Assembly (NCBI GenBank): GCA_010015805.1
Contig: ML978146.1
Span: 62,001 to 126,000 of the forward strand
DNA from: Rhizodiscina lignyota
Lineage: Eukaryota
Direction: 5' to 3'
Length of the DNA: 64,000 nt
The notes beneath the pieces were generated by a model that saw only the letters and a program-made list of their open reading frames with translations, was not told the origin of the DNA and did no database searches. Each line of letters starts with the position of its first letter. The stretch's first letter is position 1. Shown piece after piece: positions 24,930 through 58,209 of the stretch. A program made the translations under genes and the position numbers.

Positions 24930-25971
24930 ATGGTCTCACTCTCAGAAGTTCGCGCTTCCAACGCCCGGATCGCCAAAGACACGGCGCCTCACACGGCCAT
25001 ATTTACCGGAGCCACCGACGGAATCGGCAAGGCGACTCTTACTCGCCTGGTCTCTGCAAAGTTGCCAATCAAGATTTATGTCATCGGCCGCAACGGTGAC
25101 AAGCACAAACGGCTCCTGGATGAGCTCCGGAAGTCCAATGACAAGGCGGACATTTTCTGGCTCGAAGGTCAAATCTCGCTGCTCGCGGAGGTACAGAGGC
25201 TTTGCGATGAGATCAAGGCTCGCGAGACGAGTATTGATCTGTTGTTCATGAGCGCAGGATTCATTCGCTCCGGAGGTCGAGAAGGTATGTTATAGCTACA
25301 GCTTCAGAGTCGACGACAACTCAATTTTCTTAGAAACAATTGAGGGTAACGAGATCGGTCGGTCTCTGTGCTACTATGGTCGAATTTTATTCATTACCCA
25401 GCTTCTGCCCCTGCTCAACGCGTCGTCGAACAACCCGCGCATCCTCAGTATTCTCGCCGCGGGCAATGAGTCCTCCTCCATCCCTCTTGATGATTTAGAC
25501 CTCAAAAAGCCTGAAAACTTTGGTCTCGTCTCTTCCTCGAAGTCGGCGGCGACTCATACCACATTGTCCATGTTAAAGCTAGCGCAGGAAAACCCCCGTG
25601 TCATTTTCATTCACCACTATCCCGGCGGTGTCAAGACGGACCTTTTTAAAAAGGTTTGGGGTGAGAAGTGGTGGTGGTGGCTCTTTGCGCCACTGCTGGC
25701 TATGGCGGGGACTTCGCCAGAGGACGCTGGAGAGAAGGCCGTGTATCTGCTCACCAGTTCCAAGTATGGAGGAAAAGGGGTCCCGCTGTCTGCCAGCGAG
25801 CGTCCAGGGTTGACCATGGCAAAGACAAAGGAGGTAGGCTCGCTGTTTAACATCAACGAGAAGGTCCAGGAGCTGTATCAGGAGAAGGTTATGGCGGATC
25901 TGAACAGGATGGATGCAGGAGCCATCGTCTGGCGAAAGACGCTGGAGACACTCAAACCATATTCCTCATGA
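24930..25971 (+). CDS. Atypical short-chain dehydrogenase/reductase, 2 exons
   Basis: IFTGATDGIG Rossmann motif, IDLLFMSAG, HHYPGGVKT; intron about 25286-25333. Confidence 0.9.
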
Positions 25972-26410
25972 CTGCTCTTAATAGTTTAATGGTCGATTAT
26001 GTTTAAACTTGTAATGTACGGTCTTGTAACTTATTGGTAACATAATTCTACGTTGTCAGTGACGACGATTTTTGCAGGGCGTCCTCCCCGTTTGGGAAAT
26101 TGGGAGGTTTTCGGTGTCGGTGGGAATAACTGCTTGTGGAGGATCTGGTGATCGAATCACCCGTGCCAGTCCGTCAGAGTCTTTAATTGCTAGATAGAAT
26201 TGGATGCAAGTTCCTACAACGTTGGTTGGTTGGGCGCGCTGTTGGATGAACAGCAGGCGGAGTTCGGCTGCCAAGTCCGTTGGACAATATTCGCTCCGTT
26301 GGAATGTTAAGCCCGACCTCAGGATTTAACCTCCTATCCTCCCAACGGATGGACCGTTAAGTCATCCGGAGACGAGTGAGATTAGCTCGTGACAGATGCC
26401 CCTGCAACCA

Positions 26411-28558
26411 ATGGAGAAACGAGGACCAGGCTCTGGTACTAGCTCGTACGGCCAGGCTTGTATGCAGTGCTTCAAGGCGAAGTGTCGATGTGTGGCTCGA
26501 TCTGACAGCGACGGTTGCGAAAGGTCAGTTATTCTTTGTGCTGGCGATCCGATGGACCTCGTAGCACTCAGTTGATCGCCTCGCAGATGCTTGCGTCTCA
26601 AGAAACAATGCCAGCCGTCAGACTCGGTTCGTAGGCGCGGCCTTCAGAATCACGAATCGAGTGCACAGATTGCAAAGCTCGAGGGCCGAATTGATGCCCT
26701 CACGTCGATGCTTCAGTCTATCGTCAAGACCACTGGAGTGTCGGCCGATGTGCAACCCATCCTCAATGAGTCCTCAGTTGGGGCCACCATCAACCCTGCC
26801 AACGCCTACACTGACAAGAGCGCGCTCTCGGGTTCCCTGAATGATGCACTATCAGCGCCATCGCCACATTCAAGTCCGTTTCACGTCGGAGGCTCGTCCC
26901 AGCCACTTCCACCATCACCGCCCCTGTACGAGCCCAAAACTGACGAGGCCGAGGGATATCTAGACCTTTTTCGGACCCGGATGTTGCCATGCTTTCCCTT
27001 CATCTTTATGCCTCCCAGTGTGAATGCCGAGCAGCTACGCCGAGAGCGACCCTTTCTATTCCGGGCCATCGTCGCAGTGGCTACATCTTCGACAAAGCAG
27101 AAACTGGCCCGCACTGAAGGGCTGATGCACGTTTTGGCCAAGTTTGCCGTGCTGGAAAACCAGTCAAACATTGATATGCTGCTGGGCATACTAACATACA
27201 TTACATGGAGCACCCAACCTTTCCTCAAACGCGCAGGCAACTTGTCTCGCATGATAATGCTGGCCGTATCCCTGGTTTATGATCTCCAATTGGCTAAGCC
27301 ACCACTACCGGAAGCGCACATAATAGGGAAAATGACTCCGGGACTTGGAGATACTGATCGGGACGCAAGGGATGCCTCTGTTCAAGGCTTCTTAGAGCAG
27401 CAAAGAGCCATCTTGGCATGCTTTGTCCTAAGCTCTATGTATGTATAGCTCCGACCTTAACTCTACACTCAACACTACTTCATTATGTCTATTGTATATC
27501 TCCCACTGACATTGATATGCTCCAAGCATCTCATCTTACTTTGGACGAATAGATGCTATACGATGGACGCCACAGATGGAAGAGGGGCTTCGCGTCATGA
27601 ACATGAACAAGCAATGCCACTCAGACGAGGCTTTCGCATTTCAAGTACGCCTGCAGGTGTTCGCACAGAAGATAAATCACGTTCGAGAACAGCAGGAGGC
27701 AAATAGTGTCCACGTAACAGCAACAGCGGCAGCAACTCCTGTTCCAGCCTTTCTTTATCTTAGGGTGCTACAGGCCCAGGTACAAGAGCTCAAAGCCTCG
27801 CTCTCCCCGCATCTTCAACAACATGGTAAGTAGCACTGGCCCAAAGTGTGGGTGCCGCATCATTCCGGCTGTCCGGGCCTATGACTACTGACACACGGAC
27901 GTGGGTTGTAGGCATGCTCACTGCATATGCGCTCTACGTCGAGCTCTGTATTAACGAGGCGACGCGCCTAGCCAGTTCAGACGCCCCTCTGCTCCCCACG
28001 CCAGAGTCTACCAGCCATGTGAGTGGTACCGTGCCCGGATTCGAACGCCTTGAGTGCCTGTGGCGATCCGTACACGCCGTCAAATCATGGCTGGACGCCT
28101 TCTACACGATTTCGCCCGCCACGTACATTGGTTTCCCCTTTTTCTTTTGGTTCCAGCTAGTGCGTTGTATCATTATCCTGAAACACTTATCCACGTTTGA
28201 GGACCCGGCTTGGGACTGTCAGGCAGTGCAGAACACGGTTGACATGTCGTGGCTGCTGGACTGGATGGCTGAAAAAGTGGAGATGGCAAGCAGAGAGGCA
28301 GGTGAACGATCCGACGATGATCTGTTCCGGCAGTTGTCTAAGATGTTACGCCTATCTCATGGGTGGATTAGAGCAAAACGCGAAGCTGCAGAACGGGCGG
28401 CAGAAGGACCCGCCTCGGTCTATAATGACCGACTCGGTTTAGCAACTGCTGATGATGATGGGGCGGATCCAAATCAGATGGCTTGGATGAATGCTCTCCA
28501 ATCCGGAGATGAGACGTGGTTTGAGGATTTTTTTGGCTGGCCTTCCACAACACTATAG
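26411..28558 (+). CDS. Zn2Cys6 transcription factor, multi-exon
   Basis: ACMQCFKAKCRC...CER|CLRLKKQC cluster split by an intron; LRRERPFLF and FEDPAWD motifs typical of this fungal TF group. Confidence 0.9.
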
Positions 28559-29976: not shown

Positions 29977-31097
29977 CTATGCCAGGGACCCAGGCTTGTA
30001 CGGGAACTGCTCACGGAAGCGAGTAGCAATATCGCGACGCGTCGCAACCCACACAAATGGCTTCGAGGCAACATATTCCACAAAGTCTTGAAGCGCCTTG
30101 AAGCGGCCTGGCTTCCCAGAGACACGACAGTGCAGCCCAATTGTCATCATTTTTGGCTTCCCACGGTCTCCTTCCCGATACAGAACATCGAAGGCATTCT
30201 TCAGATGCTGCGTAAAATCACTGGGCCCGCCCCAGCCGTGTGGCGAACAGTACTTCAGGTCATTACAATCATATCTGAATAGGGTTCAGCTTTTACCGAA
30301 TTACAATGACTTCGAGCACATCACTTACGTATACGGAACCATCAGCATTCCACCCGGAGATTGCGAACCTTTACCGGCAGGAACATCAATCCAATACGGA
30401 ACGTCATCAGCGTAGGTGTCTGCCTCGTACAGCAAAGGCGTGTTCAACTCTTGGAACACTTCGTACACCAGAGCCCTCGAGTGCGGTGACAGTCTACCGT
30501 AATACCAACCCACTGGATACGAACCTGTCGTCTGCTTCAAAGACGCCATCTGACGGTGGATAAATTCCTTCTCTTGTTCTGGCGTCATACCGTGATAATC
30601 TACCCATCTGGACGTGTGCCATCAGTACTGTACACACATAGGAGACTTTGTGCGTACCGGTATGCATGAGACGCAACCTCATGGCCATTCTGCGTTGATG
30701 CCTCTGCGACTTCGGGGTTCTTTTCAAAGGCCTGCCCAACCGCATACCACGTGATGGGCATGTTGTGCTCCTCGAACAGGTCCAACATACGCCAAACTCC
30801 AACGCGTGATCCATAATCGTAATCGCTCTCGACATTGACAGCACGCTCTCCGGTTCGGGGAGGAATATCGGCCTGTTCCCAGAGACGGTTCTCGGATTGC
30901 GAATCTCCATTCAGCAACGTCCGCTCAGCGCCTTCTTCATAATTGATAACGAAAGACACGGCAATCTTTGCGTTGTTCGGCCATGTGAGCTTTAGAGATT
31001 TGCGTCCGTAGCCAACATGATCTCTTGGAAAATCATACTTTGTTCCCCGAAGGGGATCCGCGTTCTCCGCATCTAGCTTTGGAACCGTGTACGGCAT
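29977..31097 (-). CDS. Polysaccharide deacetylase (CE4) family, PuuE/allantoinase-like, 3 exons
   Basis: YDFPRD.VGYG, WPNNAKIAVSFVINYEEG, YDYGSRVGVWR, HEVASH, GWYYGRLS, YADDVPYW, FDVLYREG, MMTIGLHCR, GKPGR; stop at 29977. Confidence 0.9.
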
Positions 31098-31252
31098 CGT
31101 GTCAGCCAATTGGTATCGATGCAACAGAGACAAAGGTGTAAGGATAAAAACGGTGTGCTGTACTTACAGTTTGACGCTGAAGTTGATATTCGGAAATAAC
31201 GGCACGTTGGTTTTTTCTTGAGTAAGTCGAAATATGGTTGAAGGAAGCGACG

Positions 31253-31671
31253 CTTCCGAGCGGAAGTCTACTTCCGCGATTAGCAGTTGTTATAATGCCA
31301 AGCCGGATTGTCTTTCAATCGGAGTCTCTGGTGCGGGTGAGAAGCATCACCGCCTCTTTATTCTGCAAAGTCCAAAGATTCCTTTGTAATGATTCCTATA
31401 CCTATGCGTTCCGACACTGGAGAGGCCATCTCAACACTGCCTCTAACGTTAAAAGATGTTCACGTCTGAACTGTCAGCATTATCCAATGCGCGCCATCTC
31501 GACACTATAACTACCGCCCCACCATGTGATAACGCTCATCTCCGACGATATCAGATATCCAACTATCAGCCAGCGTCCTGACTCCGACTTTATCTTGCGA
31601 TGTGAGCAACATCAATTGAGAGCATACTTCGAGTGCAACCAATCTGGGATTCAGCACCCTGGCGATTATCT
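31253..31671. promoter_or_regulatory. Divergent promoter with CGG palindromes and clustered GATA sites
   Basis: CTTCCG-AG-CGGAAG-TCTA-CTTCCG (31253-31276); HGATAR matches at 31527, 31563, 31590 and 31666. Confidence 0.45.
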
Positions 31672-31755
31672 TGGACTAAGAATGTGAAAGCACATTGCGA
31701 AGTACCTACGACATTAAGAGCGTCAATCGACGCACTGATACGGCTAAGCTGCACC

Positions 31756-33023
31756 ATGGCGACTGTCACGCAAACCGTTCAAACTCAGGCTGAACCGGAA
31801 TACGTCTATTTTCACTACGATGGTGTTTGGGGTCACAAGCGCGAAGTCCTGAAAGGCTCTTGCCGAAAGCAGACCTTCACCGAGATCCCAGTCGTTGACA
31901 TTGCTCGTCTTTACTCTCAAGATGTTGAAGAGCGCATCGGTGTTGCAAAAGAGATTATCCACGCATGCGAGAACGTTGGCTTTTTCTACATTCAAAATCA
32001 TGGCATTCCTCAAGACCTGATCCATGGAACGCTGGAATCGAACAAGAAGTATTTCAACAAGCCACTCGACGAGAAGATGCAGCAGTATATATATAAGAGT
32101 CGGAATCTTCGTGGGTATGAACCTGTCCATGGGGCGAGAGTCGATGCTACGAAAGCTACTGGAGGTGAGATCAAAATGAGCATTGAATACACGCTCTGAC
32201 AATGTCTGGTAGACCGCAAAGAGTCCTTCCTCTTCAGCTACGATCCAGAGGAAGATGAGATTGTTCCTGAGTTGACCGAAGAGCAACGCGCATTGCTGTC
32301 TCATAACCTCTGGCCGGAAGACGATGAAGGATTCCGAAAGCAGTCTTGGGATTACCATCGTGCACTTCTCCGTCTTGCACGCAAAATGATGCAAGCATTT
32401 GCACTGGGTCTTGGTGAGAAGGAAACTTACTTTGATGAGCTCGTAACTGCGCCCCTCACGAGCATCAAGAAGATTCACTATCCGCCTCAAGATTTGACAA
32501 GCACGGATGAGACGGGGATTGGCGCGCACACGGACTTCGTCTGTACGTTGTGCTCTAACTCAAACTTCACCGTACCGCGCCACTGATCATAAGCAGGCTT
32601 CACTATTCTTCATCAAGACAACACCGGCGGGCTTGACGTCCTCAACGCAAACGCTGAATGGGTGCCCGCACCTCCAATTCCAGGAACATTCGTTGTCAAC
32701 ATTGGCGATTTCCTTATGCGTCTCACGAATAACCGCTTCCTTTCTACAGTGCACAGAGTCAAGAATGTCTCTGGGAAAGACCGGTACTCGATGCCATTCT
32801 TCTTCAGCTTCGGCATGCACGACTTCGTGTCGGTTCTCCCATCCTGCTGTGGACCAGACAATCCTCCGAAGTATGAACCGATTACCGTTTCGGATGTAAG
32901 TCGAGTCAATCAACCTAGAGACTAATTAAAACTAATTGGCTGTAGTATTACAAGCGCCGACACGAGATCCAGAAAAAGGCATTTGCCGATCGGCAATCAG
33001 GCAAGGCGACAGTGTACAGCTGA
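31756..33023 (+). CDS. 2-oxoglutarate/Fe(II) dioxygenase (IPNS/DIOX_N family), 4 exons
   Basis: EIPVVD, ACENVGFFYIQNHG, HYPPQ, HTDF (HxD), VVNIGD, STVHRV, RYS; last exon ends TGA at 33023. Confidence 0.93.
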
Positions 33024-33519
33024 AGCATTACACGATTATGACCTTCATCTCATTGTTACGACTTTATATATTCCAATAATTCATGTTTGCGAACAATCCC
33101 ATTGTATTCCTACAAGGATTCTTAATCAACTGTCTTCGCAACTTGTATCTCTTTTTCCCTTGACAACCCAAAGATTGGCCATTTGCGGTGCCCATTTTCT
33201 CTCTGAAAAATGCGCGCGTATATGTACAATCTCAAAGGAGAATTCGAAGGGTGTCCATCTGATTTTTTTTCTCAGTTCCTTTGCAGCATCCTGCGGCGCT
33301 TGGAGGCGGTATTTAAGTACGCCGCAAAGAACGCACAGTTTGCATCACACTGTGCAACACTCTCATTCATCACGCGAGAGTTATCATTACCCATTCCGAA
33401 TACCTCGAATGCCTGCGGCGACAACTCCGCATACTCATCATATCCTGGGCCCTTCGTATCTCCTCACTCTGCATAGAAATCTTCGCACAAGAGACTTCGG
33501 CTCACGTGCCTTACTGACC

Positions 33520-33850
33520 ATTGATATATCTCCGCCAGCTTCGGCCTCTACCAGCTTATCTTGGTCCTCATAGAGAACACTCAGGTATTTAACTGTAGGA
33601 AGCGTCGCTGTATGCCTTGGTCCTAATACACCTACCTAGCCTTGCAGCACCTGGTTCAGCATCATGTCCGCTCCGCCTACCTTCCTTCGCTTCCTTTAAA
33701 GATCGTCTATATTTCTAACCGTTTCGAGTGTCGATGTCCGCTTTGGCCCAAGTACTTTCTCACGGCTTTTGAGCGCCCGAATGTACACGGCCTCCGCCTC
33801 GGCCACCTTGCCTTGGTCGGCGTATAAATGCCCGAGTAGGCGATTGGCAT
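33520..33850 (-). pseudogene. Remnant of kinesin-light-chain-type TPR repeats (fungal NLR C-terminus)
   Basis: Manual translation: LGHLYADQGKVAEAEAVYIRALKSREKVLGPKRTSTLETVRNIDDL*...MLNQVLQG*..VLGPRHTATLPTVKYLSVLYEDQDKLVEAE; about 2.5 repeats of 42 aa with stops. Confidence 0.8.
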
Positions 33851-33947
33851 CTGGGATGGCCATCTGGTAAAAGGCAATACTACCACCAGCTCTCTTGATA
33901 TGGATGAATCTGTGACAAAAAGTGATTGAATTACTTTGAATCTATCT

Positions 33948-34799
33948 CTACGGTCTATTCTGTTTCGATAAATCGTTCCTGTAAAGTGGGTTCTCCTCCA
34001 CTTCCCGCACCCAAAGTGGCCAAGGCTTAACTACCCCTGTTTTCCCGGTGGATTTTCCTTCGCGTTCGGTCATGAACTGAATCTGTTCCCCCAATCCAAC
34101 AGCGGCCATTTGAACCTTAGCATTCTGAGTAGTGTAGACACCTCTTAGAACTGTCATCTCCAGCGAGTCAGAAGTAGCTACAAATCCATGGCCCCTCATC
34201 AGCACAACAGGGTGTGTTGGCTGGCCGTTGACTGCTGATCCTAGTGACTTTGCTAAATCCAAACCCAATCTAGTATCTGTCACCTTCATATCCTGCAAAT
34301 AATCAGGGTACTCCCTGTAGACAGTCGCTACATCCCAGACCGGAACTGCAGTACCAAGAAATCCTGCCCTATGGAAACAAGCCTGGAGTGGGGTGGAAGA
34401 TATTGAGAAAGGCACCACATCAAGGGAGTGTGAGTGCAAAACCGATTGCGTCTCGGGGTAGGCTTTGTAAATTTCAGAATGGATGAAGCGTTCCGAGAAC
34501 CCTGTTAATTCTTTTCAGTTTCCTAGCGCACTACTTGGAGGACAATACAAACCTCTTGGGGCATCAGCTGCCACCGCCTCTCCATCTTCTACCTTGTATA
34601 CCACCAAGTCGTCTGTTGACGCAGCAAGTGCTGGTGCTAAGTATCTGCACATTAAGAAAGTGGATGGTGATAGGCGGACTGAGATGTGTCCATAAGCGTC
34701 CAAAAGGTCATGGTAGTGAAGAATGTGGCAGGCATGGAGATATTTGCAGAGCAATTCTTCTGAGATCTGACTGATCTCTGTGATTTCGTTGTCTCTCAT
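33948..34799 (-). CDS. Class II aldolase/adducin-family metalloprotein (possible decarboxylase), 2 exons
   Basis: LDAYGHISVR, ERFIHSEIYK, HSHS, LMRGHG metal-binding histidines. Confidence 0.9.
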
Positions 34800-35287
34800 C
34801 TTAGGGCTCGAGTTTTGATTAATCCTGGTGAAGTGGGATTGCTTGGGAAGCTTTGCGTCTTAAATCTTTTGAACATGTGGAAAATCAGTCAATTGCCGTG
34901 TTTCAAATCCCGCTTCATATCATTCCACTCTTCAAAAATAAGATAGCAATCTGTTCGGAACTCATTTCCCCGGATGACAGATTCCTCCATCATTCCGGGG
35001 AGATTTGGGTCTGCCCAGGTCAATGGGTATGTCAGTCCTTTTCAGATCGGAAAGTCCGATGATGGATGTCGTCCCCTGTTTGCTCCCCGCAGATGAATAT
35101 TCATCGTCTTGATAGGGTACCAATCACTATTTAATGAGTGCAAGCTGTCTTTGCAGATTCCCGACTAAAGACGCAGATCAGAAGACGGATACCCACTGCT
35201 TTCCTCTTTTCTCCTCTCCGAATCTGGGACGTGGCTTACTTGTGCCTCTCCTCTGTCAGTCCAACAGTCGTGGTCATATTTGTCGAC

Positions 35288-37192
35288 ATGACACCGCACC
35301 CTACCGACAAGGACATTTCGTCCTCCTCCTATATAGAGGAACTACGGATTGATCCCATGGGAGAAATGAAAGTCCCCGTGTCCGACTTGAAGCTGGACTC
35401 AAATGGGCTACCCCTGGTGCCTCAACCATCTAATCAACCATCTGATCCTTTAGTAAGAAGTCTTTTAAGAATATGTCGAAGAGAAGAGCTACTCTTTCTA
35501 ATACAGAACATTGCAGAACTGGCCAAAGTTGTACAAATACTATGTGCTGCTCTTACTTTGCGTTCTTGCGTTTTCCGTGCAATGTAATTGACCCCTCTCA
35601 TCTAGCGTCCATCGTGTCTGGCTCATCCAAGTTGTACTAACGCTCATCGTTCTGCATTACAGTTGGCGCGGGAATGACTCCGGCAGCTTTTGCTCCCATT
35701 GCCGAAGACTACAAAGTAACCGATCAGCAAGCCAGCTATCTGACAACCTGCAACTCCCTCTTCGGTGGTGTCACGCCTCTGCTTCTTACACCGTATGTCA
35801 ATATGTATGGCAGGCGACCTGCTTACCTGGTACGAACTTGATCTATTCTCAATTCGTCCAAGTTGGAGTCACTTATCAAAGCGCCCATACAGGTGTTCAC
35901 GTTGATCCTGATTGCGGCCAATATTGGTTCAGGCTATGCCGCTACCTATGCTGGACAAATCGTTGCTCGTTGTTTCTCTGGCGTTGGTGCCAGCGTCGCT
36001 CTGTCTATTGGAGGTGCTACGGTGCGTTATATACTCTCTTCGATGGACAACAGGATTCCCCAGCTGATTTAGACCGGCACAGATTTGCGACATGTTCTTC
36101 CAAGGTGAACGTGGACGCTTCATCGGATTTTATGCCCTGGCTATAACAAATGGAGTGAGTGATGCTTTCTACGGCCATGTTTATTTGAGCCACAATGCTA
36201 ACCACGACGACTGCTTCAAAGCCTCACTTTGGCCCTATTGCCGGTGGATATATCGCACTTAATCTGGGGTGGAGATGGATCTTCTTTGTGAGTATAAGAT
36301 CTTACTTCAAGTCAGTCAGCACCGATCAACTAACCTGCTTCTCTCTAAACAGATCCACTCCATCATACTGGGCATGATTCTCGTAGTCTTCGTCTTGTCA
36401 TTCCCAGAAACGCTGTTCTCACGACTCGAATTCAGTAATCTGGAGGACCTGAGCTACTGGAACAAGCTCGCTTTCCGAGGCAAGGTGCTCGACCGGCAGA
36501 TGCACATGTCTGACTTCCTTAGCAACTTCAAAATGCTCAAGTACTGGACTGTAGTGATTCCTTGCATCTACTACATGACCGCAAACGTGTATGGTTCCAT
36601 CCTCTTCGTCTTGACCGCATCTAGCATCACAAAGCAATTGTATCACTTCGACACCTCGCAGACCGGCATTCTGCTCGGTGTACCCTTAACGATTGGCTGT
36701 CTGATCGGTGAGGCCTGCACTGGGTGGATCTCTGACCGGCTGATTAATCAGTACGCCCGACGACATGACGGTTACCGCAAGCCGGAGGCGCGACTGCATC
36801 TGTGCTTTTTGGGCCTATTTCTCCCGGCCGGTCTCATTATTCACGGCGTCTGCGTCAGTGAGCAGACGCCATGGATAGGCCTCGCGATTGGTATGGTGGT
36901 TGCCTCGATTGGAGTACAGGCCGCCACTACTTTGACCTATACATATGTTAGCGATTGTTACAAGCCGCAGGCACCCGAGGTGTTGACCATCGTCAACCTG
37001 TTTCGTCAAATTTTTGCTTTCACCATCGGCTTCTACGCGCTTCCGTTTGGTCATAAGGCCGGGTTCGACGTGGCTTGGGGCACGTTTGCCGCCATACAGT
37101 TTGTGACTTGGCTCCCTTTGCTGATGTTGATCTGGAAGGGAGAGGGTATTCGGAAATGGCAAGGCGTGCCGAATTTGCATCAGGATCTATAG
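35288..37192 (+). CDS. MFS transporter (Hol1/DHA1-like), multi-exon
   Basis: LVPQPS..PSDPLNWP, YGRRP, GPIAGG, LGWRW, PETLF, RKPEARL, YVSDCYK; many hydrophobic helices. Confidence 0.88.
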
Positions 37193-37813
37193 TTGCAGAA
37201 CATCTCGATAATCGAGGACTTTGTCCGCTGTATGGGCAAAGTCAGTCCATGGCTGCCATAGTGAATCGGTATACTACCAGCCATAGCGGCCTTCTTCCTG
37301 ATAGAACGATCAAATCATTTCTATAAAGTAAAAATAAGCCGTCACTTCTGTGGTTGCTGTGATACATGTAGTTATCTAGCCTTGCATGGTGATTGATTTG
37401 AAAATGCGCACTTTGAGCTCTCCAATGGCCGACAGCCGACGCTCAACCACCTCGACCGCTTGCCATTCGTCGTGGGGTTCGTCATCGTTGCCATCAACAG
37501 CGCGGAGGAGCGGTTGAGGTTCCTGTCGCTGGCCACGGTCCAGGAGTTCCAGTACTCTGGATGTGGGGAGTGGGGAGTTGTTGGTCCCGGTCTGAGGAGC
37601 CGCACAACCCCAGATCGCTCTCCACAACGACCGGGGAGCTAATTCACGTAACTCCGCCAAGCATCGCCAAAGCACCTCCGCAACTCCCCCTTTTCCCTTA
37701 CTTTATCAGAGTACAAACGTAAGAATAGCTAGAAAAGCTCCCATCTAATCGGAAGGTAATTCAGCGCGTTCTTTCCATTGTTTTCTATCTCTGATCTCCT
37801 ACCTCCGACATTC

Positions 37814-39448
37814 ATGGACTGCCAGGTTTTAATCGCCGGGGCCGGGCCAGTTGGCCTCACGATGGCACTCGAGCTCGGCAGGCGAGGCATCAAGGTGCTG
37901 CTCGTCGACCAGCGATCAGGCTTCGGCAAGCTACCCAAGATGGAACGCTGTAATGCCCGGACGATGGAAAATTTCCGCCGTATGGGGATATGTGCACCGA
38001 TCCGTGCTGCCGGTCTCGACAATGACATGCCGATGGACGTCTTCATCTGTCTGGAGAACATTGTCAACCCACCGCTTATACACCATGCCTATGCATCTGT
38101 AAACGCACTACGCGCCAAGTTCCACGCCACTACCGATGGTTCAACAGCAGCAGAACCGTACCAGCTTATTTCGCAGTACACGCTTGAGCCTCTCTTGTAC
38201 AACATCTCCAAACGCTATGATAATGTTCAGGTTGCCTTTAATCGGGAGCTTATCGATTTCACTCAGGATGAAACCGGCGTTACTGCCCAACTGCGCCTTG
38301 CTGATGGCACTGTCGCTGACGCTCGTGCGGACTATGTTGTTGGCTGTGATGGTGCCTCAAGCACTGTCCGTGAACGTCTTGGTTTTGTGCTTGAAGGCGA
38401 ATCGCTGCTCCGGATGCGGCAAGCACTCTTCTACTGTGAGGACCTTCTTGAGCGCATTCCGATTGGAATCGGTCGGCACTACCACGTCGCTGACAACACA
38501 AACTCGTTTATGATTGTGCAGGATGATAAGAAGCACTTTTCTTTTCATGCCACTGTTTCTAGCGACGAGGAGATGGCGCCGCTGTTTGAGCGGGTTGTTG
38601 GCTTCCCAATTAAATACAAGCAGCTCTACGTTGGAGGGTGGCAGCAACGTCTTATGCTAGCCAATCATTACCGTGACCGCCGGGTCTTCCTTGCTGGTGA
38701 TTCAGCTCATCTTGTTATCCCAACGGGCGGGCTGGGTATGAACACTGGACACGCCGATGCTGTTGATCTGTCCTGGAAGCTGGCCGCGGTTCTGCATGGC
38801 TGGGGCGGGCCGGCACTGTTGGACTCCTATGAGGCAGAGCGTCGGCCCATCGGCGCCCGTAACATTGCAGCCTCAAGGCGGGCTTCCAAAGGCCGGCGCC
38901 AATGGCGGCAGCTATGGCGCCCCGAAATCGCCGAAGACGGCCCTGTGGGCGAAGCTATACGTGCGCAAATGATTGCGGTGGCCGAGCGTGAGCATCGCTG
39001 GAGCAACGATCTGTATGGCATTGAGCTTGGATATCAGTACACCAATTCGCCGATCCTTATAGGGGCCACCGATGACACAAACATGCGCGACGTCGAATCA
39101 GGGTTTGTATACCGACCAGTTGTTCAGGTTGGCTATCGTCTACCAAACACCTGGATGAGCGATGGCAGATCTATTCAAGATGTTATCGGCGACGAGTATG
39201 CGCTTGTTGGACATAAGAATAACCCCCCTGGTCTAGACCTGTTAGAGAAGGAGTTCCGACGTATCGGTGCCTTACTGCGCGTCGTTCAACCGGACACTGC
39301 AGAAGCCGTTGCAGTGTACGGTAACGACTTGATTCTTCTTCGGCCTGATCTTCACATAGCTTGGAAAGCTGCTGATCTGCCTGGGGACCCTGCTCTTCTT
39401 GTGGCGATTGTTACTGGCAATCATAGCAAACCCGCTTCAAGTCTTTAA
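37814..39448 (+). CDS. FAD-dependent aromatic monooxygenase (class A, PheA/TfdB-like), intronless
   Basis: GAGPVG, VGCDGASS (DG motif), RVFLAGDSAH..PTGGLGMNTG (GD motif), LLDSYEAERRP, LLRPDLHIAW; single uninterrupted ORF. Confidence 0.93.
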   Translation: MDCQVLIAGAGPVGLTMALELGRRGIKVLLVDQRSGFGKLPKMERCNARTMENFRRMGICAPIRAAGLDNDMPMDVFICLENIVNPPLIHHAYASVNALRAKFHATTDGSTAAEPYQLISQYTLEPLLYNISKRYDNVQVAFNRELIDFTQDETGVTAQLRLADGTVADARADYVVGCDGASSTVRERLGFVLEGESLLRMRQALFYCEDLLERIPIGIGRHYHVADNTNSFMIVQDDKKHFSFHATVSSDEEMAPLFERVVGFPIKYKQLYVGGWQQRLMLANHYRDRRVFLAGDSAHLVIPTGGLGMNTGHADAVDLSWKLAAVLHGWGGPALLDSYEAERRPIGARNIAASRRASKGRRQWRQLWRPEIAEDGPVGEAIRAQMIAVAEREHRWSNDLYGIELGYQYTNSPILIGATDDTNMRDVESGFVYRPVVQVGYRLPNTWMSDGRSIQDVIGDEYALVGHKNNPPGLDLLEKEFRRIGALLRVVQPDTAEAVAVYGNDLILLRPDLHIAWKAADLPGDPALLVAIVTGNHSKPASSL

Positions 39449-39792
39449 TGACTTCGACATTCGGCGACTTGGGATTGACACTTGTAGATAGCCTAGTCAA
39501 CTCTGCTGAGAGGTGTCTGTAGATGAGTATGCTATATCTTGCCAGTAGTCTTGAAATCTGCCTTTGAGGGCCTGAGAACCTTTTATGAGGGCTATTCCAG
39601 AGCCCGTAGCACTTTGTAAAACACACCTGTGGATAGTGCATCGAAATCGTGATCATGTTCAAAGAATAATCAAAAGAACAGACTAAAGAATTGTAAAAAT
39701 TCTGGGTACAGTCACATTACCTTCCTGAATACCCTTCGCAATTCATGATGCCCTGTTTGTTTGGAGCTTCTGTATCCATTGCAGAGCATAGC

Positions 39793-41458
39793 TCACTCTG
39801 TGTATACAAACTTGGGATTCTCGTCACCCAATTCGGCAATGTCTTCCTGACTCATGCCGGCGACAGTGTGATCTTCCTTACCAGCTGCCCGATTTTTGTT
39901 TCTTCTGTTGAAATATACAGTCATGATGGCGTAAAGAATGCCCGCGAATGCAACCAATGCTAAGGTGACGCCATGGCCCTTCAGAAATCGAGGCGCATCA
40001 GTTGTAGGGTACAGCTGGTCTCGTTAGTCTTCTGATTATGCGAAAAATCCCGACTACCCCCAATGGCACTGAGGGATAGGGATAGAGACGTACATATGGA
40101 GCCATGATTCCAGCAGCATTCCCAATAGTAAGCTGAAGGCCGCTTGCCACCGCCCTTTTACCATATCTTGGGCAATTCGTCGGAAGCCACGCCAGCGGAA
40201 TCCCTACAACCACGTACAAGCCTAGTGCGACAAAGAAGCAGCCAGCGTAATGCACCCCAGCACGCGTCTTGCTCATGAGCATTGCGTACCCGATAACAGT
40301 CAGAAATGCGAAGATAACGACGTATATCCCCCTTCGCTGCTGCCTATCGCTGAAGTACGCTGCCGACAGGTACGCGATCGCCCCGAGACAGTAGCACGGG
40401 ATGGTCAGGACCTGCACGTGGATGGCGGTGTAGCTGGGGTCAATGTTCTTGATTATCGTGGGCAGGAAGGTCGAGTACCCGTACAGCACAGTGTCTGCGC
40501 CGAACTGGCCGAAGCAGAACATGTAGACTTTCCAGTCCAGCGCGGCCTTCTTGGCGTCGGGCCAGTGGAATTCTTGTGATGAGGCTGTGTGGCCGATTTG
40601 GCGCATCCGTCGGACGACCATGAGCTCTTTCTCCGCTGGGGTGAGATAATACGCGTTCTCAGGGTCGTCTGCGAGGATAAACCAGCATGCAATTCCCAAG
40701 ACGAAGGTTGGTAGGCCCTCAATTATCATGATCCATCGCCATGCCCTCTGCCCTGCTACACCGTCCATATTCCCAATTGCATATGCTAGCAATCCACCAA
40801 ATGCGCCTGCAAGTGCGGCGGATACGAATAGATATCCGATCCGCAGCGCCAACTCTCGCCTCGTGTAGAACAGTGTAAGGTATAGCGTCATACCCGGGAA
40901 CAGTCCCGCCTCGACTGCACCGAGAAAGAGACGGCAGACAATCAAGCCTCCGTAATTCTGGCACAGGCCCGTCAGAGTCGCGATTATACCCCAGGCGGTT
41001 GTGATAAACGCAATCCATCGTGATGGGCGTAGGCGCTTGATAACGAGATTCGAAGGTAGTTCGCAAAGGATGTATGTGACGAAGAGGAGTGAGACGGCCG
41101 TTTGGTACTGATTCCCTTGGAGCCCGAGGTCGGCTTCGAGGCCGAACAGTCGCGCGTTTCCTATATTAACTCTGGTAGATGTTAGAACTTGAAGAAACTC
41201 GGCTCCTTGAAGATCGTTTTGACGACGCATGCTGCGTGCGCCAACTCGAGAGTGTGACATTGTGCTGGCATATTGAAATGGCACTTGCCTGTCGAGGAAC
41301 GAAAGCAGATAGAGAAGCATGACTACCCAGACAATATTGAGGTCGAGCTTCCGCACAAGCTTCGCCTCAGCCGCGTGGTCGATTTCTGGTACATCCGCAC
41401 TTTGCAGTTGTTCGAGTTCCTCCGGCGGAGGGGACTCGATCTTTTTCTCCTCGTCCAT
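39793..41458 (-). CDS. MFS anion:cation symporter family (Tna1/Dal5-like nicotinate/allantoate permease), 3 exons
   Basis: KLVRKLD, FLDR|VNIGNA, ELPSN, EAGLFPG, WRWIMIIEG, SDR..RRG; last exon ends ...ENPKFVYTE* at 39793. Confidence 0.92.
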
Positions 41459-42705
41459 CTTGGCTGTATCACATTAGAGACTGGCCGTGGAACGAAGTTG
41501 AGCCAGTTCAGCGCAAGAGAGAACTTGAGAGGACGTGCGAAACAGGTGTGAAAAGTAAGAAGACATCATTCCTGCAGCGTGCAGATCTCCACGGTTTATA
41601 GCGACCAGTAAGGCAGATTACGAAAGACATTGCGCGAGCGTGACGCGCTGTCCAATGATGGGTATGAGTAAACTCCGCCGAGAAGAAAAGTTACACACGA
41701 TAAGAGGTGCGATGTGCCCAAAGGCTCGAAAGCATGATGCCGCGACCAGGATCGCACGAACTGTGGAGCTCGACCTCGGAGATCGATCCGGCGGGCGGAA
41801 AAGGACATGTCTACATTTTGTAAATGGTCAAAAAATGGATTCTCTGGAGAGCAGACTCATGGACATGTAACATCTTCACACAAATTCCGCTATTTTGGAG
41901 CTAGGGAGCTTGATAGCTTGATGAACGGGATGGTGGTGAACATGACGTCGGTGTGCGTTCCGCCAACCATTCGATGGCAGGGATCGCGCTCTATGCTTAA
42001 CCGGCATGACGACGATCCATTGAATAAAAGAATTTGTCTGAATATATAGAAAGTAAATATTGCACTGGACTCGAGACATCAGATGCAATGTTTGAACTGT
42101 CTGTCCAGTCAATATTGTGCTTCAGACGAATGCCAAGCCGCTCATTCTATTTAAATTCAAGCCAAGGCATACGTTATTCGCTTTCAAGCACCTTCTTTCT
42201 TTACAACTGAATTTTCATATGATAAATGTGTTGCTGCGATGAATTCTTCGTAAGGTGTGTTGAACAGCTTAGAAGATACATTCCAGCACAAGCCATAGAG
42301 CGAACGGCGGACATTCCACGACACTATAACCCCCTCCCCTCCGCGCCGCTCCGCTCTTTGGCAGAAAATCTTCTCAATACGATGCCAAACCCCTCAAAAT
42401 GACTTCATCCCCGCGGCGATGTTACTGTAACTTCTCCAGCAGGACTCCACCCCCGCATTACTCCGGCGCGCACTTCCACGAGTGAGATGCGAAGGCTACC
42501 TTGATTCGGGGCAGTTGCCAAAATGCACCGTCTAATCGATGGCCTGGAGGATCGCGCTGGCTGGATATATTCGGCTCTGTATGGCTTTTGCGTGAGACAT
42601 GTACCATTCTGCCCTTCCGAAGGCGTTCTTTTTCGCCAGAGCTATCTCTTGGTCGGAGCTGCAGTATCTCTCGGCCTAGCGGTATTAAGTCGTCGGAGAG
42701 TTAGG

Positions 42706-45298
42706 ATGCTGTTCTTCTTCACATCTTGTGCTTTTGCTGCGCTTTCATTTCTCGATTTCGCTGCTTCCCATCCTTCTCCAAGCAGTTCTGGCTACTATAG
42801 CAATGCAGGAGTCCTGCAGTATGTCAATCCTCGAATCGGCACGTTTGGATACAGCCCGAATGGCAATGGCGGCATGATTCCGTCTGTGAGTCCACCGTTT
42901 GGCATGACCAGGTGGACGCCACAGACGCGAGAAAACTACATATCCCAATGTCCGTATCACGATGCGGACACGTACATGCATGGTTTTCAAGCAACTCATC
43001 AGCCTGCTATATGGATGGGCGAGTCCGGTCAAGTTGTGTTAAGTCCAGGCTTCGGAGGCGTTCGGCCGCTCTTTGAACAAAGAGGAATGTCTTTTAGCAA
43101 GTCTTCTGAGACTAGTACGCCTTATGTCTATGAGGTTACTCTCAATGCGGATTCCGTGGGAAATCAGGGTTACAACTTGACAGAGCAGGATGCAGGAAGT
43201 GGTCCTGTGCCTGGTGGAGGACAACCAGTGCCAGAAATCGTCAAAGAAGGCGCCAACGGAAGAACGAGGAGGTCCATTGCGGAGAAGCGAGATTTGCCCA
43301 TGGGGATGAGTATCTCTGACGCTGGGATCTATGCCCCAGTCGAGCATATTGCGGAGCGCTCGTCGAGCAGCGGCAAAAGCATCCAAGTAGCTCAAACCGC
43401 AACTTCTCACGTCGGATACCTGCGCCTGGATTACAGCAAATCCTCCGAAGCACCTTATGTCTTCATCCAAGCGACAAGACAGAATTGGACTGGACAAGTG
43501 AACGTTGACCCTGAGAAGCGCGAGATTTCCGGATACAACCCACAGCGGCAGGACTACAAACTCGGACCACTACATGCACCAAACTTTAAAGGATACTTTG
43601 TATCTCGATTCTCGGAGCCTTTCGAAGGCTATGGTATCGCAAAAGGCGGAGATCTCAGCCATGGAGTCAAGAGCGGAGAGGGAACTCACTTGGGAGCTTA
43701 TGCTACCTTCAAGAGCGGCATGAAGAGAGTTGAAGTGCGAACTGGAGTCTCATTCGTCTCGATCGATCAAGCGCGGAAGAATTTGGATCTCGAAATAGCG
43801 GACGGGACATCATTTGAAACTACTGTTGATCAGCTGAAGAGCGACTGGTTAAGCATACTCGGTCGCATCACCATCGAAGGCGTCAATCAGACTTCAGCAG
43901 CTCACGATCAACGGACAATATTCTACACGGGCTTGTTCCATGCGTTACAGTATCCAAACGATTACTCCGAGCCAACGTCCAACGGAGGTGGAATCCGGAC
44001 CTTTTACAGTGGCTATACAGATAGCGTCCATACTGCCCAGGACACATATCATCAATCATGGTCTATCTGGGTAAGTTATGAATCTTTTCATCCCAATCTC
44101 CATCAAGACTTTACTCATTAGACAATAGGATACTTACCGCGCAACCCATTCGCTACTCACAATATTCGCCCCGGCCCGCGTCAACGGCATGCTCCGATCG
44201 CTGATCCGCATCTACGAATGGTCCGGAAGGCTCCCGATGTGGGCCAACATCGTCGAAACCAACATCATGATCGGCACCCATGTCGACGCTGTCTTTGCGA
44301 ATGCGCTTAAGCGAGGCTTCCGCGATTTTGACATCGCTAAGGCCTGGGAAGGCGTGCATAAGAACGCATACATCCCACCGGAGCACGACACAGAGCTTCT
44401 GTACTATGACAGGGAGCCGTATACGCCTGATGAAGTCCGCGCGGGCCTAACGACGTACATGTCGAAAGGTTGGGTTGCCAATGACCGATGGGCAGAGAGC
44501 GGTTCCAGAACGCTAGACTACGCATTCGATGACTATGCAGCGGCTGTCGTTGCGCAACACGCAGGCCAGAATGATTTCGTGGATGAGCTCTTTGCGCGAA
44601 GCAAGAACTACAAGCATGTCTGGAACTCCAATACGACATTCATGGAAGCCAGAAACGAAAATGGGACCTGGGCTGGCACCGCGCAAGGTTGGACAGAAGG
44701 CGACGACTGGGTCTACACCTTCGCCGTTATGCACGATGTCAACGGCCTCGCCGAGCTCTTCGGCGGCAGGGATAAATTGAAAGCGAAACTAGACGAGCAC
44801 TTCAATGGCGGGCATAATGATCAGACCAACGAGCCGAGTCATCACGTTCCGTACCTGTACGCGGCGATTGGATATCCCGCGAATACACAGAATCTGACTA
44901 GATTGATCGCATGGGAGAATTACAACGCCACGTCCGCCGGGCTGAGCGGCAACGAGGATCTCGGGCAGATGAGCGCTTGGTACGTCTTCTCGGCGCTTGG
45001 CTTTTACCCTGTGAATCCGGCGAGCGATGAGTATATTGTTGGATCTCCCTTCTTTGAAAAGGTCACTATCAGGCTTCCGGCAGGCGTGGCAAATGGTGGC
45101 AATGCGCAGAAAGATGGTGAGAGGACACTAGTTATCAGTGCTCCGGGAGCGCCAACGAAGCCGTTTGTCAAGTCCCTCAAGGTGAATGGGAAGGATATCA
45201 CGTCGCCGATGCTCCGGCATGCGCAGATTGTAGGGGCGAGTAGTATTGAATTTGAAATGTCGGAGACGCCGCAGATTTGGGGATCGGATGGGGTGTGA
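42706..45298 (+). CDS. Secreted glycoside hydrolase family 92 alpha-1,2-mannosidase, 2 exons
   Basis: Signal peptide; YVNPRIGT, PFGMTRWTPQT, SIW|DTYR, MIGTH, SRTLDYAFDD, NEPSHHVPY, GNEDLGQMSAWY; intron 44071-44128. Confidence 0.95.
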
Positions 45299-56696: not shown

Positions 56697-57200
56697 TGTC
56701 GCGACGTCGAACGCGTCTTCACGTGACCAGGCGGCGGCCGAGAGCTGAAGGTAGACGAGAACACAAGAACACGGCCGTGAGAAGGCGCCGTGACACCAAG
56801 ACGCTCGACTCGGCTGAAAAAGACAATCTCGTACGGTGCGGCCGCGACAAGTGCTGTTCTGGGTAAACTCACATCGAGGGTGGACTGTGGGGAGGACTCG
56901 GCCGATAAATACACCACAGCGACCAGGGCCACAGGGGGCGTGATGACTAACCTTCGTGCTTCGTTTACAGCTGTGCATCGCAAACCTTGGCGATCTGTTG
57001 CTCATCCTTCAGTCTCTGCTCCACTTCAGTCCAGTCGCAAGCACCGTGGCGGGCATACATGGTGGGCAAGAGAAGAAGAGAAGTGTTGGCTGGGGAGGAT
57101 ATAACAGCCGAAAGGGGGCCCATGTTCCATGAGATGGATCAACGGCCGCAGCCCTGCCCTCCGACATCACCAAAGATTACGCTTCGCAGAAACTTGCACA

Positions 57201-58209
57201 ATGGCTTCAGCAATCAAGACTGTTGGTGTTTTGGGAACCGGAGTCATCGGCTCCAGCTGGACTACGCTGTTCCTCAGCAGAGGCCTGAAGGTCATTGTGT
57301 CAGACCCAGCCCCCGGCGCTCAGCAACATCTCGATGATTTCATAAAGCGAGCATGGCCCTCGATGCAACGCATTGGCCTCTCTGCTGACGCTTCTCCGTC
57401 CAACTACAAGTTTGTGGATGATCTTGCCAACCATTTGGATGATGTAGACTTTGTCCAAGAGGTACATATCCTGAACAAGACCTTTGATGAGAAGCTAATC
57501 CAAGGCACAGAACGCACCAGAAAAGAAAGAGTTCAAGTCGAAACTGTTCGGAAATCTCGATGCCAAAGCCAAGCCGGGCTTGATTCTTGCATCTTCCTCC
57601 TCTGGGATTCCATCATCCCAATTCGTCGATGGCTGCACAAAAGCGCCCGAGAGAGTCTTGATCGGACATCCTTTCAACCCGCCGCATCTCATTCCTTTGG
57701 TCGAAGTCGTTCCTCACCCTGGAACCGCAAAGGAGGTCACTGAAACAGCAATCGACTTTTATCGTTCGCTGGGCAAACATCCGATCTTGATCAAGCAAGA
57801 AGTCCCTGGTTTCGTCGCAAACCGCCTTCAAGCCGTACTCGGGAACGAAGGGAATGCTCTGGTGGAACGAGGGATCGTGTCTGCAGAGGACCTTGATACT
57901 GCCGTCACTTCATCTCTCGGTATGAGATGGGCTGTTACTGGGCCGGTCATGACCAACATTCTTGGAGGAGGTGGCGGGAAAGACGGGTTCATGAGGATCC
58001 AGAAGAGTATTGGCCGTTCCGCTCAAGTGTGGCTTAAAGATATGGCTGAGCACCCGTTCACGCCAACAGACGAGAGCCTCGAGAAGGTGAATGATAGCGT
58101 GCTTCAGTGGATCGAGCACCTTGAGCTGGCCACTGTCGAGGAGGAGAGAGACAATGTGGTTCTGACCATAATGGATCTCAAGAAGCAGTATGTCAGTATC
58201 CACCAATGA
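57201..58209 (+). CDS. 3-hydroxyacyl-CoA dehydrogenase family (lambda-crystallin/L-carnitine dehydrogenase-like), 2 exons
   Basis: VGVLGTGVIGSSW, FVQE|NAPE, ASSSSG, IGHPFNPPHL.PLVEVV, PGFVANRLQ, LGMRWA..GP. Confidence 0.93.

Follow-up and report, generated by a model that had tools for sequence, protein, structure and literature searches.

The stretch of 64,000 nucleotides analyzed here, positions 62,001 to 126,000 of the forward strand of contig ML978146.1 from the fungus Rhizodiscina lignyota (NCBI GenBank assembly GCA_010015805.1), is referred to at its full extent as the window; its positions 29977–41458 (11.5 kb) contain six complete genes, named g1 to g6, that are considered here as a candidate catabolic cluster (Table 1). 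The window is fungal DNA of ~50% G+C with short GT-AG introns. Gene models were built from the sequence with manual reading of the splice sites; the reading frames of all six genes are intact and their introns canonical, each coding sequence (CDS) having a length divisible by three and one stop codon, at its end, and all introns are of the GT-AG type with the sole exception of one GC-AG intron (GCAAGT donor) in g6. The gene order comprises the divergent pair g1/g2, the convergent pair g2/g3, the divergent pair g3/g4, the tandem pair g4/g5, and the convergent pair g5/g6. The six genes, with the positions, orientations, and two divergent pairs proposed in the original prediction, are thus reproduced by the models, and all six family assignments are likewise upheld by Pfam, PDB, NCBIfam, and Atlas searches. 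The short fourth exon of g2, with the stop codon at 33021–33023, is overlooked when 32925 is taken as the end of the gene, and the CDS of g6 runs past a long open reading frame (ORF) stopping at 39998. The first intron of g6 (GCAAGT...CAG, 117 nt, in frame, with a CTAAC branch site) is an open frame when read through, which adds 39 spurious residues to ORF-based gene calls.

Table 1 Positions of the six genes, their divergent promoters, and surrounding features in the window
Feature	Position	Strand	Remarks
g1, PuuE-type CE4 (NodB-fold) cyclic-amide hydrolase	31097..29977	-	338 aa; introns 30608-30657, 30275-30328
g2, 2-oxoglutarate/Fe(II) dioxygenase, IPNS/DIOX_N type	31756..33023	+	371 aa; introns 32165-32212, 32543-32596, 32896-32945
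g3, class II aldolase-fold protein, putative metal-dependent decarboxylase	34799..33948	-	266 aa; intron 34502-34552
g4, MFS transporter	35288..37192	+	501 aa; six introns
g5, single-component FAD-dependent aromatic-ring monooxygenase (PRK06126 subfamily)	37814..39448	+	544 aa; intronless
g6, ACS-family permease, Dal5/Tna1 type	41458..39793	-	489 aa; introns 41172-41288 (GC-AG), 40015-40093
Divergent g1/g2 promoter	31098..31755	.	658 bp
Divergent g3/g4 promoter	34800..35287	.	488 bp, from gene models
Zn2Cys6 transcription factor, candidate regulator	26396..28558	+	at least 3 introns; 3' exon boundaries approximate; ends 1.4 kb from g1
Short-chain dehydrogenase/reductase (SDR)	24930..25971	+	adh_short 4.9e-11 on first exon; TGATDGIG motif; coordinates approximate
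GH31	2675-5233		flanks wider region
GH92 (alpha-mannosidase family)	42505-45298		follows g6; flanks wider region
Cytochrome P450	16690-18146		no core biosynthetic gene near
Cytochrome P450	50519-52181		no core biosynthetic gene near

The g5 protein contains the Pfam domains FAD_binding_3 (1.3e-68) and Rng_hyd_C, matches RebC in the PDB (3.5e-60), and passes NF004780, the NCBIfam model of the PRK06126 subfamily (456.6 versus 445 bits, residues 2–538 on profile positions 8–548 of 552), on which its bacterial relatives score 484–524 bits. Among the best 120 of 7818 homologues (E<=1e-30) that were taken up, the only named fungal row is from Penicillium lagena (82% identity) and the 15 other named rows are all actinobacterial (56–67%), with 12 more rows, carrying no taxonomy, at 69–90%. 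In a FastTree phylogeny of 123 rows drawn from the top of the match list, rooted on two ~31%-identical proteobacterial enzymes and evaluated with local supports, g5 falls into a clade of 13 rows (support 100) that has a long stem and is nested among actinobacterial rows; the sister of this clade is a single row without taxonomy (96), both together are sister (99) to a clade containing Nocardiopsis and Microbacterium, and the other named rows are all actinobacterial. The nesting of a small fungal clade among actinobacterial proteins (60–67% identity) indicates horizontal transfer, and it is a well-supported conclusion from the sequences that g5 was apparently acquired by a fungus from Actinobacteria, which are soil bacteria. 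This bacterial-to-fungal transfer is the most concrete new fact of the analysis. The gene is intronless, versus 1–6 introns in its five neighbors. Its G+C content at third codon positions (GC3, 0.55) equals that of the neighbors, which speaks against a recent transfer.

Bacterial relatives of g5 are rare, being found in none of 401 genomes sampled from Microbacteriaceae (E<=1e-120), in one of 401 sampled from the phylum, in one of 86 from the family of that genome (the genome itself), and in four of 401 sampled from Microbacterium. Their contexts were taken at four loci, L162 and L167–L169 (Microbacterium), with identities to g5 of 55–67%, a 47% match (G1135) being left out. At L162 (55%), the context comprises genes for an MFS transporter, Amidohydro_2, a flavin monooxygenase (FMO), creatinase/M24, an ABC transporter, OCD, and glyoxalase; at L167 (67%), MarR, an FMO, IclR, an ABC transporter, Aldolase_II, Amidohydro_2, IclR, and phenol hydroxylase; and at L169 (62%), an FMO, an MFS transporter, an ABC transporter, Aldolase_II, and an isochorismatase-family hydrolase. 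The longest series, at L168 (65%), runs from Aldolase_II through pcaIJ-like CoA-transferases, a pcaB-like gene of the Lyase_1 family, and a protocatechuate 3,4-dioxygenase beta gene to IclR, an FMO, Amidohydro_2, a second FMO, an ABC transporter, an iron-containing alcohol dehydrogenase (Fe-ADH), and an aldehyde dehydrogenase. The g5 relative of this last locus (L168:2020-13494) is situated inside a protocatechuate/beta-ketoadipate set (pcaH-, pcaB-, and pcaIJ-like), and the second, PRK06126-like monooxygenase scores 340 bits, below the cut-off.

An Aldolase_II gene is located within 10 kb of the g5 relative in three of the four loci, the copies being PhtC-like (93–134 bits), and an Amidohydro_2 gene also in three of the four, directly adjacent in two. 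The Amidohydro_2 superfamily is described as one of metal-dependent aromatic acid decarboxylases (PMC6644310). Because each of the two families occurs near g5 relatives in three of the four bacterial loci, the pairing of a decarboxylase with a hydroxylase is recurrent; and because the four genomes contain few Aldolase_II genes (2, 3, 6, and 2), it is very unlikely that chance placed one near the g5 relative in all three Microbacterium loci, which differ in their arrangement (~1e-5 if independent). The pairing of a class II aldolase-fold enzyme with a flavin oxygenase, on which part of the original prediction was built, is therefore a sensible one, as bacterial g5 relatives adjoin such genes. 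It appears that the FMO subfamily of g5 is habitually found beside a decarboxylase in aromatic-acid catabolism, and that the fungal locus would repeat this pairing with a non-orthologous aldolase-fold gene. Actinobacterial aromatic-acid islands and PhtC phthalate pathways resemble the fungal locus in linking the same FMO subfamily with aldolase-fold and/or Amidohydro_2 genes, transporters, and regulators, whereas they differ in having ABC transporters and IclR/MarR regulators, in one case also pcaH/pcaB/pcaIJ, with no PuuE-type or 2-oxoglutarate (2OG) dioxygenase gene within 10 kb. As for the substrate, these contexts (pcaH/pcaB/pcaIJ, Amidohydro_2, and phenol hydroxylase) point at least equally to aromatic acids, the N-heterocycle of the original prediction being one candidate.

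The protein encoded by g3 matches Pfam Aldolase_II (PF00596, 1.5e-13), and its PDB matches run from Mlr6791 (2z7b, 8e-20) through the decarboxylase NovR (6.4e-5) to fuculose-1-phosphate aldolase (6.1e-4); judged by sequence, it is nearer to known decarboxylases than to sugar-phosphate aldolases and epimerases, and is regarded as a putative decarboxylase. The best NCBIfam model is that of 3,4-dihydroxyphthalate decarboxylase PhtC (NF053537), with a score (47 bits) so far below the 200-bit cut-off that g3 is not a PhtC equivalog. Across an alignment of 16 sequences there is no variation at E3, H22, H24, and H104 of exon 2, the conserved Glu and His positions that serve as metal ligands in this group. 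Scanning of metagenomes with a g3-type alignment gave 80 loci, of which three short ones (1.8–2.2 kb, 54–59% identity) look fungal and carry no neighbor genes. From 160 bacterial and metagenomic loci around g3 homologues, 15 were picked and the ORFs of 13 run against Pfam, leaving 12 usable loci (L121, which was mis-centered, is excluded); four of these look aromatic-catabolic, with Rieske, LigB, extradiol, cupin, or FAD-monooxygenase genes and TctC receptors, and the rest are heterogeneous. No g5 relative was found in five genomes from which loci had been taken. On two betaproteobacterial contigs of metagenome-assembled genomes (L119:5943-8486 and L146:5873-8498), a g3 homologue (40–41% identity) and an FAD monooxygenase with Rng_hyd_C (31–32% identity to g5) form a divergent pair, and a TctC receptor gene adjoins the pair in L119, the locus whose neighbors were scanned. 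With these two contigs, the pairing of a hydroxylase with an aldolase-fold protein is seen for a third time, independently of the other cases.

The relationship of g3 to Mlr6791 is worth comparing with the vitamin B6 degradation pathway of Mesorhizobium loti, in which, as Mukherjee et al. reportedly found in 2007, Mlr6791 acts as hydroxymethylpyridine-dicarboxylate decarboxylase and is followed by a flavin oxygenase and then a hydrolase; the PDB title of 2z7b reads merely 'Mlr6791 protein'. Mlr6791 is the best solved relative of g3, and the logic of decarboxylase, flavin oxygenase, and hydrolase is common to both systems. However, g5 is a PRK06126/RebC-like protein of ~545 aa and not an MHPCO-type oxygenase, which is small in the B6 pathway; the hydrolase is of the NodB fold here and an alpha/beta hydrolase there; and genes of the upper B6 pathway are absent here.

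Of the two transporters, g4 gave no significant Pfam match with single exons, and its last exon (279 aa) reached 0.99–0.98 in an Atlas feature search to the top named clusters with PF07690 (31–84% of members), the shown matches being all from Ascomycota. In g6, Pfam MFS_1 is matched at 2.2e-32, and the 359-aa middle exon best matches the NCBIfam model TIGR00893 (2A0114; 176 bits versus a 395-bit cut-off of a model built for bacteria), followed by the 4-hydroxyphenylacetate permease HpaX (130 bits, below cut-off). Judged from these family relationships, both permeases would fit the uptake of organic acid anions, the ACS family being one that carries aromatic and heteroaromatic acid anions. We propose from the sequences that a putative decarboxylase (g3), a putative flavin hydroxylase (g5), and the importers g4 and g6 form a core module. 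In the predicted reaction sequence, a hydroxylated aromatic or N-heteroaromatic carboxylate would be taken up by g4 and g6 (step 1), decarboxylated next to a ring hydroxyl by g3 (step 2), and hydroxylated at the ring by g5 with NAD(P)H and dioxygen (step 3).

The interpretation that we prefer, albeit tentatively and with somewhat less than even confidence, is that all six genes constitute a lineage-restricted accessory catabolic cluster of a filamentous ascomycete, with a carboxylated hydroxy-(hetero)aromatic compound as the substrate. Both the gene content and the arrangement agree with a catabolic function, and the g3–g5 pairing is independently supported by bacteria. Following the three steps of the core module, g2 may perform a further oxidation, for example, side-chain or ring hydroxylation, and the hydrolase g1 may then open a cyclic amide at the C–N bond; should all six genes act together, the substrate would be an N-heterocycle and the pathway would yield nitrogen. 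The single pathway of uptake, oxidation, decarboxylation, hydroxylation, and hydrolysis that had been put forward is accordingly retained for its gene content, catabolic flavor, and g3–g5 pairing, but not for the unity of all six genes, in which the participation of g1 and g2 is the part that we infer.

The g2 protein has the Pfam domains DIOX_N (7.9e-22) and 2OG-FeII_Oxy (4.8e-21), and its translation shows the HTD...H...RYS iron/2OG motif. Its PDB matches are thinly spread with none close, including TropC (9e-10, the top match of exon 1), thymine dioxygenase (5e-13), and, for the last large exon, the ethylene/succinate-forming enzyme entry 9ovh (1.7e-22); an Atlas search with exon 1 gave the DIOX_N family only. 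The fungal xanthine dioxygenase XanA is a member of the TauD family. The earlier statement that IPNS-like 2OG enzymes oxidize pyrimidines and purines holds for pyrimidines, as exemplified by thymine 7-hydroxylase (PMC9304392, section 15), and no support was found for purines.

The g1 protein, with Pfam Polysacc_deac_1 (1.7e-10), is markedly similar to PuuE allantoinases of the bacterial ureide pathway. Exon 1 matches the PDB entries 1z7a (1.7e-38) and 3cl6 (PuuE allantoinase, reportedly from Ramazzina et al. in 2008; 4e-37), with HpPgdA (3qbu) reaching merely 2.5e-7; it aligns gap-free with residues 3–128 of 3cl6, and NYEEG and SH.Y blocks are common to g1, 3cl6, and 1z7a. The exons cover positions 2–124, 126–196, and 208–297 of the 297 positions of the NCBIfam PuuE profile TIGR03212, collinear over the whole model, with scores of 143.5, 56.6, and 104.7 bits; their sum of ~305 bits, an approximation to the whole-protein score as exons were scored separately, is below the equivalog cut-off of 424.6 bits. 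In contrast to the PuuE allantoinases, g1 is accompanied by oxygenases, a decarboxylase, and permeases instead of urate-pathway genes. Bacterial proteins annotated as PuuE are 57–59% identical to g1 over exon 1, about equal to many of its fungal homologues, and those annotated as allantoinase or urate-catabolism protein are 57% identical. A total of 173 CE4 homologues of g1 was found. Xylogone has two copies (74% and 71% identity), and the presence of two CE4 copies in some fungi suggests diverged specificities. Fungal PuuE-type CE4 proteins (P0242, P0249, P0257, P0273, and others) are widely labeled 'chitin deacetylase 1' in public records, a name that is probably wrong for the whole fungal family because the sequences group these proteins with the metal-independent PuuE allantoinases. 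The substitution of the metal-binding triad and the metal independence of PuuE are described in general terms in two articles (PMC8092297, PMC10967932), and the former mentions PuuE1 of Ustilago maydis as an uncharacterized fungal PuuE-like protein. A 757-aa protein of Fusarium poae (P0327) combines Amidase (PF01425) with Polysacc_deac_1, and this fusion of a PuuE-type CE4 domain with an amidase recalls the hydrolase pair HxnM–HxnN.

Since g1 is so conserved with bacterial PuuE, in both the gap-free alignment and the identity, the possibility that it is an ordinary allantoinase has to be taken seriously, and the locus may consist of two independent units lying side by side: an allantoinase locus of g1, perhaps with g2, for ureide/purine nitrogen salvage, and a separate aromatic-acid module of g3–g6 feeding a ring cleavage encoded elsewhere. 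We consider this possibility less probable than a six-gene cluster, yet the strongest of its competitors. The collinearity of g1 with the PuuE profile is in agreement with it, as are the unlinked CE4 and aldolase homologues of named fungal genomes and the aromatic-acid islands (pcaH, pcaB, pcaIJ, and phenol hydroxylase) around bacterial g5 relatives; furthermore, because g2 and g3 are convergent and 925 bp apart, nothing ties the two halves together. On the other hand, the score of g1 on the PuuE model is below the cut-off, and the duplicated CE4 genes of fungi such as Xylogone also weigh against this reading. In addition, one bacterial g5 operon contains an isochorismatase-family amidohydrolase and another contains creatinase/M24 and OCD genes, which hint at nitrogen-containing substrates.

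Several observations weigh against a unified six-gene cluster. Linkage in other fungi was judged indirectly, from locus tags and contigs of homologue rows in named genomes, and the six-gene arrangement was not demonstrated as conserved: in every named fungal genome that could be compared, the families compared are non-neighboring. The CE4 and aldolase homologues are apart in Fonsecaea erecta (AYL99_11341 and AYL99_11306, on contigs of different length), F. pedrosoi (Z517_05658 and Z517_08627), Sporothrix curviconia (002280 and 003004), and Aspergillus ambiguus (different contigs), and in Penicillium lagena, the g5 orthologue (N7510_009453) and the aldolases (N7510_001033 and N7510_006674) are on three different contigs. 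The longest contigs with the closest aldolase relatives (79% identity), of 362857 and 124213 bp, are absent from the list of the best 120 of 7818 g5 homologues. The promoters of the cluster contain no 7-mer common to all four and no 8-mer common to three or more. In the 160 loci around g3 homologues (37–59% identical), g5-like genes occur in only 4, MFS genes in 3, and a CE4 gene in 1, and g1 may, on its sequence, be simply an allantoinase unconnected with g3–g6. Finally, the aldolase-fold genes beside the bacterial g5 relatives are only 24–29% identical to g3, which marks the fungal pairing as analogous: it was put together rather than passed on as a unit.

Matches on contigs of identical length, namely 36612, 2225, and 3976 bp, appear among the aldolase homologues as well as, independently, among those of g5, a hint that homologues of both genes share contigs in two or three other organisms. 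The scattered distribution in the named genomes, together with the lack of a common promoter word and the large size of the families, which are common in Pezizomycotina (7818 homologues of g5 at E<=1e-30 and 173 of the CE4 protein), would be expected if unrelated accessory genes of metabolism and transport had merely become adjacent in a gene-dense, variable region. We regard such a chance neighborhood as unlikely, since the locus, with two divergent pairs, two transporters, and a neighboring regulator, is built as fungal catabolic clusters typically are, hxn among them (PMC8478523, section 2.1), the association of FMO and class II aldolase genes in Microbacterium is far beyond chance, and each of the four promoters has an excess of GATA sites.

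The closest known analogue of the six-gene locus is the hxn nicotinate regulon of Aspergillus nidulans, which comprises the CE4-fold cyclic imidase HxnM, the DIOX_N/2OG enzyme HxnY, two MFS permeases (HxnP and HxnZ), and two flavin monooxygenases, under the control of AreA (GATA) and HxnR (C2H2) (PMC8478523, PMC9304392). Both are fungal ring-compound clusters with permeases, flavin monooxygenases, a DIOX_N/2OG enzyme, a CE4-fold hydrolase opening a ring at a C–N bond, and a dedicated transcription factor, if the six genes function as we suppose; the Pfam architecture of g2 (DIOX_N and 2OG-FeII_Oxy) is the same as that of HxnY, as compared at the level of architecture, and AreA control there has its counterpart in the enrichment of GATA sites here. 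This analogy, like the bacterial origin of g5 and the adjacent Zn2Cys6 regulator, goes beyond the original prediction.

With such a similar parts list (CE4-fold hydrolase, DIOX_N/2OG enzyme, two MFS permeases, and FAD monooxygenase; PMC8478523, Table 1), the locus might be taken for a copy or paralogue of the hxn cluster, but this is very improbable in view of several differences. By the PDB matches of exon 1 described above, g1 is PuuE-type, whereas HxnM is HpPgdA-like. Among the Pfam-scanned ORFs of at least 140 aa in the window, no HxnS-type molybdenum hydroxylase (Fer2, FAD_binding_5, and Ald_Xan_dh_C2), HxnT old yellow enzyme (OYE) reductase, or HxnN amidase was found. The neighboring regulator is of the Zn2Cys6 type, HxnR being C2H2, and no C2H2 gene appeared in the same Pfam scans. 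The monooxygenase g5, with Rng_hyd_C at the C-terminus in place of the Phe_hydrox_dim of HxnV (PMC8478523, Table 1), is of another FMO subfamily and of apparent bacterial descent. Moreover, the same article lists no class II aldolase among the 11 hxn genes or the 'additional genes' of section 2.5, whereas g3 is present here. On these grounds, namely the PuuE-type CE4 protein, the lack of a molybdenum hydroxylase, OYE, or amidase match among the scanned ORFs, the Zn2Cys6 regulator, the C-terminal domain of g5, and the extra aldolase, the reading as an hxn copy or paralogue was rejected.

Immediately before the six genes come an SDR gene and a Zn2Cys6 gene, which are absent from the original prediction and are possible members of the cluster. 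The six-cysteine motif of the former, read from the sequence, spans the first intron (26524–26586), and because single exons gave no Pfam match, the assignment is based on this motif alone. This factor would be a likely pathway-specific regulator of the genes. CGG-type half-sites such as those in CGGAAGTCTACTTCCG are typical targets of Zn2Cys6 proteins, and this sequence, a perfect 16-bp palindrome at the motif level, occupies 31261–31276 in the divergent g1/g2 promoter. The half-site CGGAA occurs 12 times in 2409 bp of cluster promoters, including the g3/g4 promoter (3) and the g6 promoter, versus 2.3/kb window-wide, a weak and post hoc excess. HGATAR sites number 14 in the 2609 bp of the four cluster promoters (5.4/kb) versus 39 in 18825 bp of other non-coding-like DNA (2.1/kb), a 2.6-fold enrichment (Poisson p 0.0014, post hoc) that is seen in all four promoters; four sites are clustered at 31527–31671, within 145 bp upstream of g2, and two are in the g3/g4 promoter. 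The enrichment hints at an added control by the nitrogen state, but the attribute 'nitrogen-regulated' of the original prediction depends solely on this post hoc excess, which in itself is no evidence of regulation, and co-regulation of the six genes is likewise our inference.

The catabolic rather than biosynthetic flavor of the locus is borne out by the two importers, the adjacent Zn2Cys6 regulator, and the absence of a core synthase: no match to the families of polyketide synthases (PKS), nonribosomal peptide synthetases (NRPS), or terpene synthases was obtained among the scanned ORFs of at least 140 aa in the window, the longest ORF listed being 580 aa, which confirms for these ORFs the earlier remark that there is no backbone synthase in the window. 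TropJ, a protein with the class II aldolase fold, nevertheless raises a different possibility. The locus could have been part of a secondary-metabolite cluster, as a fragment or as its tailoring section, with the core synthase outside the window or lost; an example would be a tropolone-like set in which g2 is TropC-like, g3 a TropJ-like decarboxylase, and g4 an exporter, together with the flavin monooxygenase and the Zn2Cys6 factor. TropJ is identified as the decarboxylase of stipitatic acid biosynthesis (PMC12006828), TropC is the top, though weak, PDB match of g2 exon 1, and two cytochrome P450 genes are present in the window. We judge this origin improbable, however, as no core enzyme family is matched among the scanned ORFs of the 64 kb, g6 is of an importer family, the bacterial g5 relatives reside in catabolic and not biosynthetic neighborhoods, and no function of PuuE-type hydrolases is known from clusters of this kind.

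In a more far-reaching version of the six-gene catabolic cluster, which we think unlikely, a eukaryotic pathway of chimeric make-up would degrade a carboxylated compound of the pyridine or pyrimidine type, such as a pyridine dicarboxylate or a catabolite of vitamin B6. The flavin hydroxylase g5, captured from Actinobacteria, would have been wired to the fungal aldolase-fold decarboxylase g3, the 2OG enzyme g2, and the PuuE-type hydrolase g1, with hydrolytic ring opening and release of nitrogen under GATA-factor control. If true, this would be a second fungal route for N-heteroaromatic compounds, independent of hxn and assembled convergently with the bacterial routes.

Fungal clusters for the catabolism of ring compounds are few, and only part of them, including hxn, have been worked out. 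No description of the present gene combination was found in the literature, within a partial coverage that is no proof that none is in print, and nothing was found on 'mlr6791' or on T. reesei gene 112525. If real, the six-gene cluster would represent a new combination of enzymes, that is, a class II aldolase-fold decarboxylase, a PRK06126 flavin hydroxylase, a 2OG dioxygenase, and a PuuE-type hydrolase, and it would be a case of a bacterial catabolic gene taken into a eukaryotic cluster, where its neighbor is of the same type as its customary partner but not homologous to that partner. It would also provide testable functions for three large 'hypothetical' families: the fungal Cda1/PuuE-like CE4 proteins, the fungal Mlr6791-like aldolase-fold proteins, and the PRK06126 monooxygenases, the last of which are named 'hypothetical protein' in NCBIfam. 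If the genes are not co-regulated, the locus would be ordinary save for the horizontal transfer of g5. Elsewhere in the window, genes for a 3-hydroxyacyl-CoA dehydrogenase, a family III CoA-transferase, and a pyridine nucleotide-disulfide oxidoreductase (57105–60751 and 62334–63380) may form another small group for acyl-CoA metabolism.

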